Positions 223 through 15,757 of a DNA stretch of 28,468 bases are shown here, piece after piece. Under the pieces are notes generated by a model. It searched no databases and was not told where the DNA came from. It saw only the letters and a list, made by a program, of their open reading frames with translations. The stretch covers positions 1 through 28,468 of the forward strand of contig JBEPVF010000016.1 in NCBI GenBank assembly GCA_041691135.1, in the 5' to 3' direction. Source of the DNA: Candidatus Peribacteria bacterium. Its GTDB lineage: Bacteria; Patescibacteriota; Gracilibacteria; Peribacterales; Peribacteraceae. Position 1 is the first letter of the stretch; each line of letters begins with the position of its first letter. The position numbers and the translations under genes are program-made.

Positions 223-1524
223 TCAATTATCGATCTTCTCCTGAATACCCGGCAGCGATGGATCGAGTTGTAATGCTTGCTCGTACGCTGCCTTCGCTTT
301 CTCCGTATCGCTCATCTTTTCGTATACGCTGCCAAGGAGTTCGAAGGCTTTTCCGTCGGTCGGCCATTTGGTTGTTGCCGTCGTCGCGGCAGCGAGTGCT
401 TCGTCGTTGTTTTGCAGCGCGAGTGCGACAGAGACGACCGTCGCCTCATCGGCGAGGGTTGCATCTTTATCGGCGGCCAATGCTTTGTACTGCTGCAGAG
501 CAAGACCCTGATCGTTGGCTTTCACTGCTTCGCGGGCCAGGAATGCATGCACTTCTTTCTCCGGTTGAAAGCCATTCTTGAGCGCATACTGGGCGAAGGT
601 GATTGCGTTCTGATGATCATTGAGTGCGGCGTGCGCGCGAGCCAGAAAGTACTGCGTCTCGGGTTTTTCGGGATCCAGATTGTAGGCTCGTTCCAGCGAT
701 GCGAGCGCCGTTTCATCGCGTTCGGTCGTCAGCTCGCAGAAGCCTTTCACGATCCAGGCATCGCGATAATCATCCTGCTGACTCACGACTTGCGTGAGCA
801 GCGGCAGAGCCAGTTCACACTGTTGCGTTTCGGCCAGTGCGCGGGCGAGCAGCGTGACAAGATGAATATTAGGACTGTCGGGAAACAGCGCGTATTCGTC
901 GTACGCATCCTGCAATACTTTGGCATATGACCGCAGTACGGGATCCCAGCCGCCGATCACCAAGGCGAGTTCCTTCTTCGCATTCTCGTGATCCGCTTGG
1001 ACCAAAAACAACAGCGCCTGCGCATAGTGCCGTTGCGGTGATTCCCCTCCGCCATTGATCACGTCCTGGGCTTTGGATAGTTCACCACTGCGAATATCCA
1101 GGATCGCTTCCAGAAGGAGCAGATCTTCGGCTCGTGCGCCGGCGCTCTTCAGTTTGACCATCGTCGTCCGCACACCATCCGTCTCGCGACGCTGCAGCTG
1201 CGCCTGTGCCAACTTTCGTAATGCCGTCACGCCGCCGCCCTCGCGTACCGCCTTCTGATACTGGTCCTCGGCGTCTTTCCAGTTTCCCTGCAGCGCTAGT
1301 AAATCACCCTGACGCAGTGACAAAAGCGCCTCGTCGCCGGCGCCAATCGGCGTGTCGTCCAGTGCGGAGGGGAGAGGTGTGCTGTCCACGCCGCCGATTC
1401 CCTGCAACTTCTTTTGTAGTTCACTGCTGGTGTTGTTCATTTGATACCACAAGAAGCCCAAAATGCCGCCCGTGACGAGTACAGCGGCAATCACCGGCAG
1501 TAGAATGCGTGTGGGAAATTTCAT
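223..1524 (-). CDS. Membrane-anchored tetratricopeptide repeat (TPR) protein
   Basis: 433-aa ORF with an N-terminal hydrophobic helix and TPR-like helices (ALASLERAYNLDPEKPETQYFLA; AKAAYEQALQLDP). TATTCT lies 7 nt upstream of the ATG. Confidence 0.85.
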   Translation of the reverse strand: MKFPTRILLPVIAAVLVTGGILGFLWYQMNNTSSELQKKLQGIGGVDSTPLPSALDDTPIGAGDEALLSLRQGDLLALQGNWKDAEDQYQKAVREGGGVTALRKLAQAQLQRRETDGVRTTMVKLKSAGARAEDLLLLEAILDIRSGELSKAQDVINGGGESPQRHYAQALLFLVQADHENAKKELALVIGGWDPVLRSYAKVLQDAYDEYALFPDSPNIHLVTLLARALAETQQCELALPLLTQVVSQQDDYRDAWIVKGFCELTTERDETALASLERAYNLDPEKPETQYFLARAHAALNDHQNAITFAQYALKNGFQPEKEVHAFLAREAVKANDQGLALQQYKALAADKDATLADEATVVSVALALQNNDEALAAATTATTKWPTDGKAFELLGSVYEKMSDTEKAKAAYEQALQLDPSLPGIQEKIDN

Positions 1525-1670
1525 CGAGGAAAGAATACAGGGTTAGGCGAGATTCATCTACTCACGAAAAGTGACCGATGTGGCCGAAGTGGCAGAGGGG
1601 ACCGGGGATTGCTCGTCACAATTCACTTAGTTTTTTGCTTTCTGCATTCATGGATAAGTCTTCAAGATCA

Positions 1671-10375: not shown

Positions 10376-11509
10376 ATGGATTCCACCTCCCTCCTTTCCG
10401 GTTACGATCAGAAGAAGCTGACGGTGGGAGTGCTCGGTGGCCATAGCGCGTTGGACGTATCGAGCGGCGCAAAGAAGCATGGGTTCACCACGCTGACTGT
10501 GGCGCGGAAGGGCCGCGAAAAAACGTATACGGAGTACTACCGGACGCGCGAAGACCGGGGCTGTGTCGACGAAACAATTGTGCTCGATTCTTTTCAGGAT
10601 ATCCTCAAGCCCGAGCATCAGAAGACGCTGCGCAAGAAGAATACGATCTTCGTCCACAACCGGTACTTCTGGGTATACTTCGACGATTTTTCCAAGGTGG
10701 AAAACGAGTTCGAGGTGCCGATCTTCGGCTCGCGGACGCTGCTCAAGCTCGAAGAGCGCAATCAGCCGTACAATCAGTATCATCTGCTGAAAGATGCAGG
10801 AATCCGCACGCCGAAAGTCTACGACAATCCGGATCACATCGATGGGCTGTGCATCGTGAAGGCGGCGGAGGCGGCGCGCAGCTACGAGCGGGCGTTCTTC
10901 CTGGTCACCGATAAAACAACGTGGCTTACCGAAGGATCGCGGTTGGAAGTGGCCGGCAAGATCAGCAAGGGCTGGGAGAATGCGCTGATCGAAGAATTTA
11001 TCATCGGCGCGCACGTAAACTTCAATTTCTTCTACTCGCCGCTCACGGGAGAACTCGAATTACTGGGTACTGACATACGGCGGCAGACCAACCTCGATGG
11101 CTTTCTGCGCATGACGGCCGATCAGCAGCTGAAGGCCCTGACGTATGCGGATGTGAAGATGATCGAGACGGGACATCAGATCTGTACGGTGAAGGAATCC
11201 ATTCTGGAAAAAGCATTTGAACTCGGCTGGAAGTTCGTGAAGGCGACGCAGAATCTGCCGAAGGAGCTGGATCCATCCGGAAAGGGGATCGTAGGACCGT
11301 TCGCGCTGCAAGGCGCAGTCGTCGCGGACGAAGGCAAAGAAGATATCGTTATCTTTGATGTCAGCTTCCGCATCCCCGGTTCACCGGGTCTGGCTGCCAC
11401 GCCGTACATGCAGTACCTCTACGGCAAACCGATGAGCGTCGGCGACCGCGTGGGCATGGAAATCCGCAATGCGGTGGACGCCAACTGTCTGGAGAAAATC
11501 ATTACATGA
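10376..11509 (+). CDS. PurP-like ATP-grasp paralog (DUF1246/DUF1297 family)
   Basis: GGHSALDVSSGAKKHGF, ERAFF, TDIRRQTNLDG, ETGH..CTVKES, GPFALQG and FDVSFRIPGSPG. TACACT 6 nt before the ATG. Confidence 0.85.
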   Translation: MDSTSLLSGYDQKKLTVGVLGGHSALDVSSGAKKHGFTTLTVARKGREKTYTEYYRTREDRGCVDETIVLDSFQDILKPEHQKTLRKKNTIFVHNRYFWVYFDDFSKVENEFEVPIFGSRTLLKLEERNQPYNQYHLLKDAGIRTPKVYDNPDHIDGLCIVKAAEAARSYERAFFLVTDKTTWLTEGSRLEVAGKISKGWENALIEEFIIGAHVNFNFFYSPLTGELELLGTDIRRQTNLDGFLRMTADQQLKALTYADVKMIETGHQICTVKESILEKAFELGWKFVKATQNLPKELDPSGKGIVGPFALQGAVVADEGKEDIVIFDVSFRIPGSPGLAATPYMQYLYGKPMSVGDRVGMEIRNAVDANCLEKIIT

Positions 11510-12460: not shown

Positions 12461-13432
12461 TCACTGTTGAGGAGTCAGAGTTATGACCTCAGTCAGGGTT
12501 GCTTTCGATCTCGGATTCTTTCCACTCAAATCCAGCGAGAGATGTGCGATGACAGCCGTGATACTTCCCTGTGTTGCTTGGGCAAAAGCATCCGTTTTCT
12601 CGAAACACGGTTCAGGACCATCCGTGCCAACGAGCGTGGGAAGTAGGGGATCGCTGTTATAGCCAAAGATACACACTTGGTTTCCTGTGATGCTATACAT
12701 ACCGGTCAGAGTCACTTTTCCATCAAATTCAGCCGTATTTCCATTCAACGCCGTGACAATCATTCCTCCCACCTGTTTGCCCACCACTAAGTCATTTCGG
12801 TTAAAGACGTCCGTGCGATCCAGAGTCCTGTAGCTAGCTGACGGCCGATCGGTAATAACGGCGAGTAAACGGTAGCGAATTTCGGCCATTTGTCCCCTGG
12901 TGAGCAGTTGATCAAATGATGTGATGTTCGTAGGGATGGCGTGCTTATCTGCCAGATACGTAACATATACCTTGTACCAAGGCTCAGAAGCAGTGTCCGG
13001 CAACGTATCTCCTTTCTGATCCATGTCGCTCAGGACGATGATCTTTGCTGCTTCCACAAAACTAATCTGCTGCGAAGGTTTGAACGTCCCATCGGCATAC
13101 CCAGAGATGATCTTTCTGGATTTGAGCACACATACCGACGGTCCGTACCACGCATCAACGGCAACATCCGGAAAAGATTGCACCGTAAGACACCCAGAGG
13201 GATTGAAGTCGCCTGGATCCAGAATCTTTGCAAACTCTGCCCGGTTCAAGGTGCTGTCTGGGCGAAATGTGCCATCGGCATACCCACTGATGACGCCTCT
13301 CTGCTGCAAGTATTCGATTGCCTGTGCATTGGCATGCGTGGAAAGGACATCCGAAAATGCAGCGAATGCCGTGCTCTGGGAAACAAGCCATAGCCCAAGG
13401 CTGGCACTTGTTATGAAGGCGGAGCGTGTCAT
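12461..13432 (-). CDS. S-layer homology (SLH) domain protein (start re-called at MTRSAF)
   Basis: Signal peptide, then FSDV...GVISGYADGTFRPDSTLNRAE, FPDV...IISGYADGTFKP and a third unit ending LTRGQMA. Confidence 0.88.
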   Translation of the reverse strand: MTRSAFITSASLGLWLVSQSTAFAAFSDVLSTHANAQAIEYLQQRGVISGYADGTFRPDSTLNRAEFAKILDPGDFNPSGCLTVQSFPDVAVDAWYGPSVCVLKSRKIISGYADGTFKPSQQISFVEAAKIIVLSDMDQKGDTLPDTASEPWYKVYVTYLADKHAIPTNITSFDQLLTRGQMAEIRYRLLAVITDRPSASYRTLDRTDVFNRNDLVVGKQVGGMIVTALNGNTAEFDGKVTLTGMYSITGNQVCIFGYNSDPLLPTLVGTDGPEPCFEKTDAFAQATQGSITAVIAHLSLDLSGKNPRSKATLTEVITLTPQQ

Positions 13433-13530
13433 GAATGAGGGGGTATACGAGAAGTGTAACAGATGGCAGCCGCCACCGGAGATATAATTCAGTGGCGAAC
13501 TCATATGAACTCGTTATGATGTCCCGGCTT

Positions 13531-13605
13531 GGGGTTGTAGCTCAATGGTAGAGCACCTGCTTTGCAAGCAGGGGGTTAGGGGTTCGAGTCCCCTCAACTC
13601 CACCA
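13531..13605 (+). tRNA. tRNA-Ala(TGC)
   Basis: GGGGTTG/CAACTCC acceptor with G3-U70, CCTGC-TTTGCAA-GCAGG anticodon arm, TTCGAGT T loop, encoded CCA. Confidence 0.97.
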
Positions 13606-13749
13606 CGTTATATAAAGAAATACCGACTTTTTGTTTATCTGAAGAGCAAAAGTCGGTTCGAAGAAGAATAGCTCGAGCATCCAGGATTTGAACTCAGTCG
13701 AGTCCAGAGAGTTGCAATCTTTGTACAAGAGTGCGACAGATTGCTCACT

Positions 13750-13908
13750 ATGAATGATTTTAGAGAGAAGCTCCCTGCGAAATGGAAAAACTACGATTTC
13801 ACGAATGCCATTGGTCTTCTGCTTCTCATGCAGGAAATACAAAAACAGGAACCACTAGATGAAACTGGTGTTATAAAAATTGATGAGGATGGGACGCGAT
13901 TGTACTGA
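13750..13908 (+). pseudogene. 52-aa ORF or 3' gene remnant
   Basis: MNDFREKLPAKWKNYDFTNAIGLLLLMQEIQKQ...LY*. The frame stays open upstream apart from one TAG near 13669, which suggests a truncated gene. Confidence 0.35.
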
Positions 13909-13922
13909 ACGCTTGTGAGCTA

Positions 13923-13951
13923 TTGACAAATATAGTTTACATGTGTAATTT
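13923..13951 (+). promoter_or_regulatory. Sigma70-type promoter of the racemase leader
   Basis: TTGACA (13923-13928), 17 nt, TAATTT (13946-13951); GTG follows 7 nt later. Confidence 0.7.
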
Positions 13952-13958
13952 ACTATTA

Positions 13959-14018
13959 GTGAAAACTTCTCGCTCCTCCACAGTCTCATTCTATTACAGC
14001 CGCTCTAAACGGATGTGA
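13959..14018 (+). CDS. Putative leader peptide 1, MKTSRSSTVSFYYSRSKRM
   Basis: GTG at the predicted transcription start; TTC-TAT-TAC codons; the stop codon lies inside the antiterminator strand. Confidence 0.55.
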   Translation: MKTSRSSTVSFYYSRSKRM

Positions 14019-14044
14019 GCGGTCTTGTGCCTAATCTGAACTTC

Positions 14045-14074
14045 AAGCCCTCGCATCTGCGGGGGCTTTTTTTT
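14045..14074 (+). terminator. Attenuator terminator 1
   Basis: AAGCCCTCGC-ATCT-GCGGGGGCTT running into an 8-T tract. Confidence 0.85.
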
Positions 14075-14158
14075 ATGAAATTTCGTCCTTCACCATTACT
14101 GGCTTCGCCGACCTATTACGAACTCATCTGTGATGTGGGCGGCTACAGCTATACCTGA
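14075..14158 (+). CDS. Putative leader peptide 2, MKFRPSPLLASPTYYELICDVGGYSYT
   Basis: ATG immediately after terminator 1; the same TAT-TAC pair; four Tyr in 27 aa. Confidence 0.45.
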   Translation: MKFRPSPLLASPTYYELICDVGGYSYT

Positions 14159-14180
14159 ATTCTCCCGAATTCTCCTGAAT

Positions 14181-14206
14181 CCCCTCACATCTGAGGGGCT
14201 TTTTTT
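14181..14206 (+). terminator. Attenuator terminator 2
   Basis: CCCCTCA-CATC-TGAGGGG, then C and 7 T, ending 23 nt before the racemase ATG. Confidence 0.85.
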
Positions 14207-14229
14207 ATTTATTTTTTCTCTTCATTACC

Positions 14230-14934
14230 ATGAAATCATCCCTTGGAATCATCGGCAACGTCGGTGTTGATGGCACCGCTGAATTTTTGAAAGAGGTCAT
14301 CAAAGAATTGGATCATCAGAAAGTTGGCACACTCCCCCGCATCATTGTAGAAGGTGTTGAAGTCAATCGTGCTGACGAGAGATTGCTGCTTGTGCATGAG
14401 ACAACTCACCCTTTCAAGAAGCCGCTGCAGAACAGCGCTCAGCGACTTGCTGAGGCGGGAGCAGACATCGTTGTTTTGGCTTGCAATACCTTACATGCTT
14501 TACAGGCAGAAATACGTTCCGCTCTCTCAGGAAAACAATGCGAATTCTTCAGTCTCACAGATGCAGTTTCTGCCCACTTAGCAGAACAGGCAATACAACG
14601 TGTTGGCATTGTCGGCACAAGTGTCACTACAGGATTATTTGAGAACACATTGAGGCAGAAAAATATTCAGCAAGTTTTGCCAGAGGAGACTATTCAAAAA
14701 CAACTCAATGAATCTATTCGCCGCATCGTTACGAGTGAAGCTCGCAGCGATGAGTGGAGACACACGCAAGATGCGATAGAAAACATACGAGAAAAGGGCG
14801 CAGATGCATTTCTTATCGCATGTACGGACCTTTCCCAACTATCTATAAATTCATCAGGAATCCTCCAATTCGATTCCACTCCTATTCTTGCAAAGGGAGC
14901 AGTGAGACGGCTTATGGAAATTGATACAAACTAA
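14230..14934 (+). CDS. Aspartate/glutamate racemase-family protein (PLP-independent, RacX/YgeA-like)
   Basis: LGIIG..G N-terminus and two catalytic Cys motifs, LACNTLH and IACTDL. Confidence 0.88.
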   Translation: MKSSLGIIGNVGVDGTAEFLKEVIKELDHQKVGTLPRIIVEGVEVNRADERLLLVHETTHPFKKPLQNSAQRLAEAGADIVVLACNTLHALQAEIRSALSGKQCEFFSLTDAVSAHLAEQAIQRVGIVGTSVTTGLFENTLRQKNIQQVLPEETIQKQLNESIRRIVTSEARSDEWRHTQDAIENIREKGADAFLIACTDLSQLSINSSGILQFDSTPILAKGAVRRLMEIDTN

Positions 14935-14947
14935 AATATTATCCGTG

Positions 14948-14976
14948 AAAGCAGCCAGACTCTATGGCTGCTTTTT
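14948..14976 (+). terminator. Intrinsic terminator after the racemase
   Basis: AAAGCAGCCA/TGGCTGCTTT 10-bp stem with a T run. Confidence 0.75.
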
Positions 14977-15022
14977 CATAGACCCAAATAAATTCTGGGC
15001 AAATTTCTGATAAAATATGAAT

Positions 15023-15757
15023 ATGGCTAATCAGATACTTGTCCAGTTCAACACATTCGGTCCGCCGCTTCGGAAGGAGGAAATTCCAAGTATCCTTGGT
15101 AAGAAGCCAGAAAATCTTTTTGAGGAACATAGGAACGAGACACTGGAACATTTTTTCGGAATCCCGGCGGCTGGGTTTACTGAGGATTTACTTATACGGT
15201 TCATCGAGATCACGGATAAGGAAAGTTTTACGAGCATTGTTCCTGTCATTCAGCCGATTGTCCGTCCTTTGGTTTCAGCCAAGCGGAATTATTGTTTTGG
15301 AGACTATCCTGCTGCTATCTCTTCATGTGGCACAGCAGGAGAAATGATGGCGATTTTTCTCTGGCGTACTGCGAATATCACCCTAAAAGGACAACCTATG
15401 ACCGAGGAACATGAAACACAATTATTTGGAACCACCTTCGAGAAATTAGGCCAGGAAAGGCGTATCGACATTCTGAGTGCAATGGGAACAATCGATGAGA
15501 AGCAAAGTCAGAAATTCAACGACATCCGTGGTGTCCGTCGTCGATCTCTCCACTACTGGGAACCCTCTGAGAGCGAGCAGAAAGACGCTCTAAGAATCAC
15601 AAAAATTGCTCTTGGTCTTGCAAAAGATATCGCTGATATCCAGCTGGATGAAGGTAAAATCAAGAGCGTTAGCGCATTTCTTCTGCGGTGGTTCGACGGG
15701 CAGAAGATCGAAGAGCCCACTAAAGATTCGACACCTTCTCATCCTGCTACTTCATAA
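15023..15757 (+). CDS. HEPN-superfamily (DUF4145-like) protein
   Basis: AKRNYCFGDYPAAISSCGTAGE helix and IRGVRRRSLH (Rx4H). TGATAAAAT extended -10 lies 6 nt before ATG 15023. Confidence 0.6.
   Translation: MANQILVQFNTFGPPLRKEEIPSILGKKPENLFEEHRNETLEHFFGIPAAGFTEDLLIRFIEITDKESFTSIVPVIQPIVRPLVSAKRNYCFGDYPAAISSCGTAGEMMAIFLWRTANITLKGQPMTEEHETQLFGTTFEKLGQERRIDILSAMGTIDEKQSQKFNDIRGVRRRSLHYWEPSESEQKDALRITKIALGLAKDIADIQLDEGKIKSVSAFLLRWFDGQKIEEPTKDSTPSHPATS

Follow-up and report, generated by a model that had tools for sequence, protein, structure and literature searches.

The leader described here precedes a gene of the Asp/Glu racemase family in the genome of a Candidatus Peribacteria bacterium. It lies on contig JBEPVF010000016.1, whose 28,468 nucleotides were analysed as a whole and are referred to as the window. 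A promoter-like site is followed by two consecutive units, each consisting of a short open reading frame (ORF1 and ORF2) with two adjacent tyrosine codons and of an intrinsic terminator (Table 1). This leader is probably a ribosome-mediated transcription attenuator that reads charged tRNA-Tyr and that is doubled in series in front of the racemase gene in this genome. The ORFs, three alternative helices, their conservation and a link to TyrA-like genes are visible in the sequences; from these we infer translation, stalling at the Tyr codons and the response by read-through. A preliminary description of the DNA had proposed two tandem units with a promoter, short ORFs starting with MK and containing TAT-TAC, pairing strands and terminators, and on direct reading all coordinates agree. 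The pairings also hold, including the differences between the units that preserve them (U-G versus U-A and A-U versus G-U). The assignment to a genome resembling those of the Candidate Phyla Radiation (CPR) was correct as well, a relative being Candidatus Peribacter sp. of the phylum Peregrinibacteria.

Besides the genome of the window (G000, 1.74 Mb; the other G and L labels denote genomes and loci of relatives), the ORF1–ORF2 leader was found in 8 more genomes belonging to the family and, from metagenomes, on 7 additional distinct contigs, giving a comparison set of 16 distinct sequences from 9 genomes and 7 contigs. A BLAST search of 41 relatives with the leader yielded a single real match, a short one in G022, the rest being noise from T-runs; the G022 locus holds the whole tandem of ORF1, terminator, ORF2 and terminator. 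A degenerate pattern for the ORF2 core matched 8 of 200 family genomes, 7 of them true tandems (G000 included), compared with 3 matches for the reversed pattern used as a control; the match at L043 lies inside a long ORF and was discarded. A covariance model of unit 1 built from seven sequences (R1) was searched against 151 family genomes and yielded 7 strong matches (E ≤ 5e-17) and 4 weak ones (G121, G096, G094 and G104), which on reading proved to be ordinary terminators at gene ends. G202 and G068 came from a second draw of 151 family genomes. A search of 151 class genomes gave no true match beyond the family; the matches in G248 and G274 were again ordinary terminators at gene ends. Finally, an exact-pattern scan of metagenomes returned 17 loci; 12 are true, 7 of which are distinct and had not been found before, and the remaining 5 match coding DNA by chance. 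Together, these searches recovered the leader in 16 sequences, with the ORF1 frame and the unit 1 antiterminator retained; a covariance-model search and a tally of the downstream genes had been put forward in the preliminary description. In all 16, the leader is located directly upstream of a gene and in the same orientation. Judged from these sequences, it is a conserved element and not a chance arrangement.

Chance expectations for the window point in the same direction. The 11-mer GATGTGRGCGG occurs twice (0.05 expected), as does the terminator motif CCCTCRCATCTGNGGGG with at most one mismatch (0.00 expected), both patterns having themselves been drawn from the data of the window. Over the whole genome, the terminator motif is confined to these two sites and the 11-mer is found 8 times. 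Compared with shuffled sequence, folding gave z-scores of −3.2 and −3.3 for units 1 and 2, respectively. A sequence search of the genome detected no further copy of the leader. A crude scan of the genome for other leader ORFs (three identical residues plus a terminator) listed 34 candidates, none of which was convincing; the one WWW candidate that was checked runs antisense within coding DNA.

In unit 1, the conserved strand GATGTGAGCGG (14012–14022) is complementary to CCCTCGCATC (14048–14057), as seen by direct reading, and strand 3 of the antiterminator (14048–14059) comprises the 5′ arm and the loop of terminator 1. The consensus structure calculated by RNAalifold from seven sequences is the antiterminator, in which CGGAUGUGAG.GG.. 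is paired with the terminator 5′ arm and loop. In an alignment of nine sequences (A6), 92.1% of the cells of the 14-pair antiterminator are paired, compared with 30–56% in slid controls. For the competing state, hairpin 1:2 together with the terminator, the values are 88.1% and 44–53%; helix 18–23/35–40 of this alignment, which represents hairpin 1:2, reaches 92.6%. In G068, compensatory changes were found in both alternative structures (C-G to U-A in 1:2 and G-C to A-U in 2:3). Terminator 1 is present in all 16 sequences, with a loop that is conserved and complementary to strand 2. Ordinary terminators have no need for a conserved loop. The alternation of 1:2, 2:3 and 3:4 pairing put forward in the preliminary description is accordingly kept by unit 1 throughout the comparison set.

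The small ORF of unit 1 has the properties of a codon sensor. ORF1 homologues comprise 17–20 codons and contain a Tyr-Tyr pair in 14 of the 16 sequences (TAT-TAC at 13992–13997 in the window). The ratio of nonsynonymous to synonymous differences per site (pN/pS) amounts to 0.79 and 1.02 in frame, which is similar to the other frames and does not indicate frame-specific selection, as predicted for a pure codon sensor. One might argue that a trans-acting factor, such as a protein that binds RNA, a tRNA in the manner of T-boxes or the ligand of a riboswitch, sets the choice at the terminator and that the short ORFs are incidental; the lack of conservation of the ORF1 peptide and the conservation of the RNA strands at the nucleotide level past the ORF1 stop would fit such a factor. 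We consider this explanation very improbable. Start codon, open frame and a UGA stop inside the strand 2 motif GGATGTGAG are kept in 16 of 16 sequences despite diverged N-terminal codons (pS 0.71, pN 0.56), and the Tyr codons occupy a fixed place, 2–5 nt 5′ of strand 1. Moreover, the element spans only some 110 nt and lacks an extra conserved domain, and no T-box or riboswitch family of Rfam matched 13400–14400 at E up to 10. No Rfam family at all scored above threshold in this interval; the sub-threshold leader and small RNA matches seen at E up to 10 were driven by the terminators.

Folding under the constraint of a ribosome footprint, another check named in the preliminary description, was used to model the response. 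With the ribosome at the ORF1 stop, the probability of the terminator (P) was 0.61–1.00 in all 16 sequences; with the ribosome on the ORF1 Tyr codons, it fell to 0.33 or less in 13 of them. For transcripts cut before the 3′ arm of the terminator, the antiterminator was predicted with P of 0.87–1.00 in 16 of 16 cases. The folding thus fits the proposed response for unit 1 in the 13 sequences and for unit 2 of the window (see below); unit 1 of the window retains its terminator in this equilibrium model.

The gene behind the leader encodes a TyrA-like protein in 13 of the 16 sequences (the seven from metagenomes being assigned from their first codons), a racemase in two (G000 and G202) and another protein in one (G022). 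The TyrA-like proteins have about 390 amino acids (aa) and share the N-terminus MES(L)S.IIG..VGVVGVGKWG. Family scans of two of them showed the Pfam domain PDH_N with 34.3 bits (cut-off 26.5) and a C-terminal ACT domain; NCBIfam prephenate dehydrogenase models matched as well (best E-value 4.7e-21), none of them reaching its equivalog cut-off. Five further copies from genomes are 56–65% identical to the two scanned proteins. Conversely, starting from close TyrA-like loci in 200 family genomes, the leader was found at six of six complete loci, a seventh being cut by the contig end, and R1 (E up to 1) detected no leader at the loci of nine distant TyrA homologues (29–32% identity). Because a TyrA-like gene follows this leader in 13 of the 16 cases, the conserved Tyr codons are best read as the signal, as the preliminary description had proposed; this link to a TyrA-like gene is the main independent support from the sequences. 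A TyrA homologue was not found in G000 and G022, and in G202 only an ACT-like fragment was detected. The 152-aa gene behind the leader of G022 gave no match in Pfam or NCBIfam and no useful match in the Atlas.

The racemase exceeds the cut-off of PF01177 clearly (81.3 versus 31 bits) and stays below those of the NCBIfam models CuyB (NF052483; 116.1 versus 190) and asp_race (86.1 versus 93.1). It is 56% identical to the racemase of G202, the other one with this leader. Both cysteine motifs, ACNT and ACTD, are conserved between the two and align to Cys-bearing motifs of 3ojc. The four genomes from the same genus lack the racemase. We infer that the racemase is a Tyr-starvation gene. A role in salvage, the formation of L-Tyr from D-Tyr, is a speculation drawn from its co-regulation with the TyrA-like gene and from the failure to find TyrA in G000.

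If the racemase had its own promoter, the two units could be independent small genes or small RNAs with their own terminators, leaving the racemase ungated. Indeed, each unit closes with a good intrinsic terminator, and attenuated transcripts could double as small RNAs, as described for rnTrpL in the accessible part of PMC6614838. We give hardly any credence to this explanation. A consensus scan of 13359–14286, from which the terminators were also taken, revealed no promoter-like site, and thus none of the internal racemase promoters that the preliminary description had considered; the gap of 31 nt between terminator 2 and the racemase ATG is T-rich. In addition, the leader lies upstream of and co-oriented with a gene in every sequence, and the terminator loops are complementary to the upstream coding strands. 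The scan did not list the site at 13923 either, because its −10 region is weak. This site ends 9 nt 5′ of the ORF1 start, and inspection by eye revealed TTGACA/TTGCCA-type −35 and TAnAAT-type −10 sequences at the same position in the 8 genome homologues.

We observed by eye that the distance of 9 nt between the −10-like hexamer and the ORF1 start, which may be a GTG or TTG codon, recurs in 6 of 9 genomes. At this distance, the mRNA would begin at or almost at the ORF1 start, and translation of ORF1 would be leaderless or nearly so. In the stretch 14060–14077 of the window, the ATG of ORF2 abuts the U-tract of terminator 1. Before it, the only Shine-Dalgarno-like purine run is the G-run in the 3′ arm of terminator 1, so that initiation at ORF2 may be possible on read-through transcripts only.

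Turning to unit 2, the Tyr-Tyr pair of ORF2 is present in all 16 sequences (14114–14119 in the window, with single Tyr codons at 14144–14146 and 14150–14152). A unit 2 terminator follows in three (G000, G202 and G022). The double attenuator of the preliminary description was therefore recovered in the window and is a minority form, since the second terminator and antiterminator are limited to 3 of 16 loci. At these three loci, the part of ORF2 that encodes C-D-V-x-G is complementary to the 5′ arm or the loop of the terminator, in differing registers, and the unit 2 terminators thus appear to be fitted to the coding strand. For unit 2 of the window, P of the terminator was 0.95 both in free RNA and when a ribosome had reached the stop, and 0.34 when it was stalled on the Tyr pair; in the stalled state, the model pairs the 14132–14142 strand with the 5′ arm of terminator 2. 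Units 1 and 2 share TAYTAC, GATG(T/C)G(A/G)GCGG and, in the window, the terminator. R1 scored unit 2 of the window as its second-best match there, weakly (16.9 bits, E 0.027) and mostly via the terminator. The claim that the units are homologous is thus weakly supported, and it is plausible that they arose by duplication.

Several observations weigh against a Tyr-tRNA attenuator, at least in its simple form. Since the strands are highly conserved, covariation is sparse, with 1–2 compensatory pairs per structure, and the covariation score of the antiterminator was reached by 80 of 500 shuffles and did not clearly exceed these controls. Hairpin 1:2 is weak, and free RNA at equilibrium mostly favours the antiterminator. 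ORF1 has a single Tyr codon in G048 and L068. Despite a ribosome on the Tyr codons, P of the terminator remained 0.99 in the window, 0.81 in G022 and 0.61 in G193. For unit 2, no hairpin with a U-tract was detected in 6 tyrA-type genome copies folded singly or on reading 7 metagenome copies, and an alifold analysis of 8 of the 13 tyrA-type regions (5 without a recognized start being dropped) yielded no conserved RNA structure (−2.65 kcal/mol). The ORF2 core shows a pN/pS of 0.31 in frame compared with 1.02 and 1.28 in the other frames, which indicates purifying selection on the peptide. Finally, of five genomes examined for chorismate synthase, only G022 yielded it; G132 and G193, which carry the TyrA-like gene, did not, and the real role of the TyrA-like enzyme is therefore uncertain. 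Chorismate-mutase-like ORFs were detected in all five genomes, three of them above cut-off; G132 and G193 thus seem to hold a terminal tyrosine branch without the shikimate trunk.

Because terminator 1 of the window is kept at equilibrium despite the Tyr stall, the switch of this unit must, according to the folding model, be kinetic, the early antiterminator having to resist a terminator of −15.5 kcal/mol. The E. coli trp attenuator is likewise kinetic.

The ORF2 peptide of 26 residues is conserved and reads M-x7-G-x2-[TS]-Y-Y-[EQV]-L-[IVF]-C-[DN]-[AV]-x-x-[YFL]-x-Y in an alignment of 15 sequences. A plain sensor of Tyr codons would have no need for purifying selection on its peptide. Among close relatives, the differences in ORF2 are, by reading, almost exclusively synonymous. 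It is conceivable that unit 1 is a Tyr attenuator and that ORF2 acts as a peptide, either as an arrest chain (perhaps responding to free tyrosine or a related metabolite) that would control the terminator here and, elsewhere, translation from the tyrA start that ORF2 overlaps, or as a trans-acting small protein. Besides the frame-specific selection on ORF2, which contrasts with ORF1, this explanation would account for the start position and the length to the Tyr pair, fixed in 15 of 16 sequences, and for the lack of conserved RNA structure in the aligned tyrA-type regions. In these regions, ORF2 has no conserved stop and in most cases crosses the tyrA start, in all three relative frames. Furthermore, ORF2 never occurs without unit 1: a peptide profile run over 401 class genomes recovered it in 5 genomes, each of which belongs to family f1 and carries unit 1. 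On the other hand, the best-conserved residues of ORF2 are encoded by its four Tyr codons, and a 1-nt indel in G000 alters the N-terminal third of the peptide, which must therefore be dispensable. The pN/pS support is overstated as well, all pairs of 15 related sequences having been used as if independent. ORF2 peptides matched no Pfam or NCBIfam family at E up to 10 and nothing in the Atlas that would suggest a function. The Rho RNA-binding domain PF07497 was found in none of five genomes searched, compared with 9 of 14 control genomes; a Rho mechanism of the TnaC/SpeFL type is therefore unlikely, and a Rho-based action of the tyrA-type ORF2 was dropped. Overall, we regard an active ORF2 peptide as unlikely.

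The conservation of ORF2 may thus reflect either its four Tyr codons plus overlapping constraints or an active nascent peptide. At tyrA-type loci, it is possible that translation of ORF2 interferes with initiation at tyrA. A bolder version would make ORF2 a new regulatory nascent peptide, M-x7-G-x2-T-Y-Y-E-L-I-C-D-A-S-G-Y-R-Y, with sequence-dependent stalling that possibly responds to tyrosine or a related metabolite. It would form a second, mechanistically different checkpoint on a classical Tyr-tRNA attenuator, in a module re-used in tyrosine-auxotrophic CPR bacteria, where it would switch on a racemase for the salvage of L-Tyr from D-Tyr. We mention this as a conjecture with a rather poor chance of being right. 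At locus L036 of G048, ORF2 is in frame with the TyrA-like gene with no stop between them, and a gene caller would predict an N-terminally extended TyrA. ORF2 as an N-terminal extension of TyrA was rejected, since the frames differ at the other loci.

Taken together, the data support unit 1 as a case of classical ribosome-mediated attenuation that senses Tyr-tRNA; unit 2 is plausible as a second attenuator in this genome, and the conservation of its peptide is left unexplained by the simple model.

For the doubled Tyr-tRNA attenuator, we propose the following sequence of events. Transcription would start around 13957–13959, a few bases 5′ of ORF1, and ORF1 would be translated at once. When Tyr-tRNA is ample, the ribosome would reach the UGA codon and cover strand 2 (CGGAUGUGAGCGG), because the ORF1 stop lies inside this strand; strands 3 and 4 would then pair and transcription would stop near 14074. 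When Tyr-tRNA is scarce, a ribosome stalled at 13992–13997 would cover strand 1, strand 2 would form the 14-pair antiterminator with the terminator 5′ arm and loop, and the polymerase would read through. Read-through would free the G-run of strand 4 (14060–14065), a possible ribosome-binding site 9 nt 5′ of the ORF2 AUG. At terminator 2 the same choice would be repeated, stalling at the Tyr pair of ORF2 freeing GAUGUGGGCGG to pair with CCCCUCACAUC. The racemase would be made only when both terminators have been passed.

Table 1. Features of the tandem leader and its surroundings (positions refer to the window)
Feature	Position	Strand	Description
Promoter-like site	13923..13949	+	−35 TTGACA 13923–13928; −10 TGTAAT 13944–13949 or TAATTT 13946–13951
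ORF1, leader peptide 1	13959..14018	+	GTG start, 19 codons, TGA 14016–14018; peptide MKTSRSSTVSFYYSRSKRM
Strand 1, unit 1	13999..14005	+	GCCGCTC; pairs with GAGCGGT 14017–14023
Strand 2, unit 1	14010..14023	+	CGGATGTGAGCGGT; holds the ORF1 stop; partner is strand 1 or strand 3
Terminator 1	14045..14074	+	Stem 14045–14054/14059–14068, 10 pairs (7 G-C), loop ATCT, T8, U-tract to 14074
ORF2, second leader ORF	14075..14158	+	ATG, 27 codons, TGA 14156–14158; peptide MKFRPSPLLASPTYYELICDVGGYSYT
Antiterminator strand, unit 2	14132..14142	+	GATGTGGGCGG; complementary to CCCCTCACATC 14181–14191 (direct reading)
Terminator 2	14181..14206	+	Stem CCCCTCA/TGAGGGG 14181–14198, 7 pairs, loop CATC, U-tract 14200–14206 (T7)
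Asp/Glu-racemase-family gene	14230..14934	+	234 aa, ATG 14230; Pfam PF01177, 81.3 bits
tRNA-Ala gene	13531–13605		Upstream of the leader

The local free energy of terminator 1 was calculated as −15.5 kcal/mol, and that of the segment which holds terminator 2 and a small upstream hairpin as −12.7 kcal/mol. Directly 3′ of the racemase stop, an 8-pair hairpin, AGCAGCCA...TGGCTGCT, followed by TTTT was recognized by eye at 14950–14976 (it is absent from the scan listing), which suggests a monocistronic racemase transcript. Neither of the two ORFs flanking the leader and racemase could be assigned: that at 15017–15757 (246 aa) matched no Pfam or NCBIfam family, and that at 13741–13908 (55 aa) matched no Pfam family. 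Further upstream, a plus-strand ORF (10376–11509) carries the domains DUF1246 and DUF1297, which we take to be the PurP-type pair otherwise typical of archaea. The module of leader and gene often adjoins tRNA genes, as seen in the window and at L041, L042, L036 and L039; these are genes for tRNA-Ala, -Thr, -Asn or -Arg and never for tRNA-Tyr. The racemase being missing from congeners, the module may belong to the variable parts of the genome.

A different leader ORF was noticed in genome G300 (contig C2, locus L059, approximately 1390–1620, minus strand). This ORF, MHIRLNTTTTTTARRVV, contains six consecutive Thr codons and is followed by a hairpin and a T-run; the gene behind it has tRNA-synt_2b and tRNA_SAD domains and is ThrRS-like. 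By its sequence, the element resembles a leader-peptide attenuator that reads Thr codons before the gene of an aminoacyl-tRNA synthetase. Leader-peptide attenuation would therefore be present elsewhere in the class, which supports the interpretation of the tandem leader as an attenuator.

As a defined and testable marker, the tandem leader may help to recognize the regulon of tyrosine limitation in uncultured Peribacteria. A functional lead is also offered for the uncharacterized racemase and for a divergent TyrA-like enzyme; the two would be subject to one sensor, although a large part of the shikimate pathway was not detected in these genomes. The second peptide, which is conserved, would attract broader attention if it were a true arrest peptide.

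Leader-peptide attenuation is textbook knowledge for Proteobacteria and Actinobacteria. As in trpL-trpE and pheL-pheA of E. coli, an ORF with cognate codons, helices 1:2, 2:3 and 3:4 and an intrinsic terminator are located before a pathway gene, which is TyrA-like in the relatives. Unlike in these E. coli leaders, the codons are those for Tyr, the stop lies inside strand 2, the mRNA apparently starts within a few bases of ORF1, and a second conserved ORF is present. The Rfam model Phe_leader (RF01859) reached 27.7 bits, compared with a gathering threshold of 55 bits, and the leader is therefore not a member of this family; Leu_leader (RF00512) reached 23.2 versus 50 bits.

Among leaders with aromatic codons, that of aroR before aroF in Corynebacterium glutamicum contains Phe-Tyr-Phe and responds to Phe, the availability of Tyr having no effect (Neshat et al., 2014, as summarized in the available text of PMC11802643). 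As far as these sources describe it, aroR resembles the present leader in having aromatic codons, Tyr included, and in attenuating a gene of the aromatic pathway; the present leader, by contrast, conserves Tyr codons alone and has either a TyrA-like gene or a racemase as its target. For Salmonella mgtCBR, 'tandem attenuators' have been described, two short ORFs whose translation is anticipated to control leader stem-loops (accessible part of PMC3641672). From this account, the two systems have in common a leader with a pair of short ORFs, each presumed to govern RNA structures that decide on transcription into the coding region. The mgtCBR ORFs reportedly respond to different signals and are said to lack a pair of canonical intrinsic terminators; in the present leader, the Tyr pair is common to both ORFs, and a hairpin with a U-tract follows each of them.

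For ORF2, a parallel to TnaC and SpeFL is possible. These leader peptides sense metabolites in a peptide-dependent manner (PMC8429421; bioRxiv 10.1101/604074, each in the part available), and a conserved peptide whose sequence matters, and not its codons alone, would be the common feature. According to the same excerpts, TnaC and SpeFL rely on a free ligand within the exit tunnel and on termination by Rho, whereas no Rho RNA-binding domain was found in the genomes searched here. A leader peptide with a function in trans is known in peTrpL (accessible text of PMC7298713). As to the racemase, the aspartate racemases 1jfl and 3ojc of PF01177 belong to the same fold family and share both catalytic Cys motifs; the relationship is distant, with an E-value of 1.9e-14 at best.

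A full-text search, outside of which subscription-only papers and supplements lie, found no published leader-peptide attenuation in the Candidate Phyla Radiation or Patescibacteria. Likewise, a search mainly of titles and abstracts, subscription-only papers again lying outside, found no published leader that reads tyrosine alone and no Tyr-codon leader before tyrA. The kind of attenuation proposed here is thus itself known from the systems above; what appears to be new is a leader that is specific for Tyr, is located in a CPR genome, and is doubled and re-targeted to a racemase.

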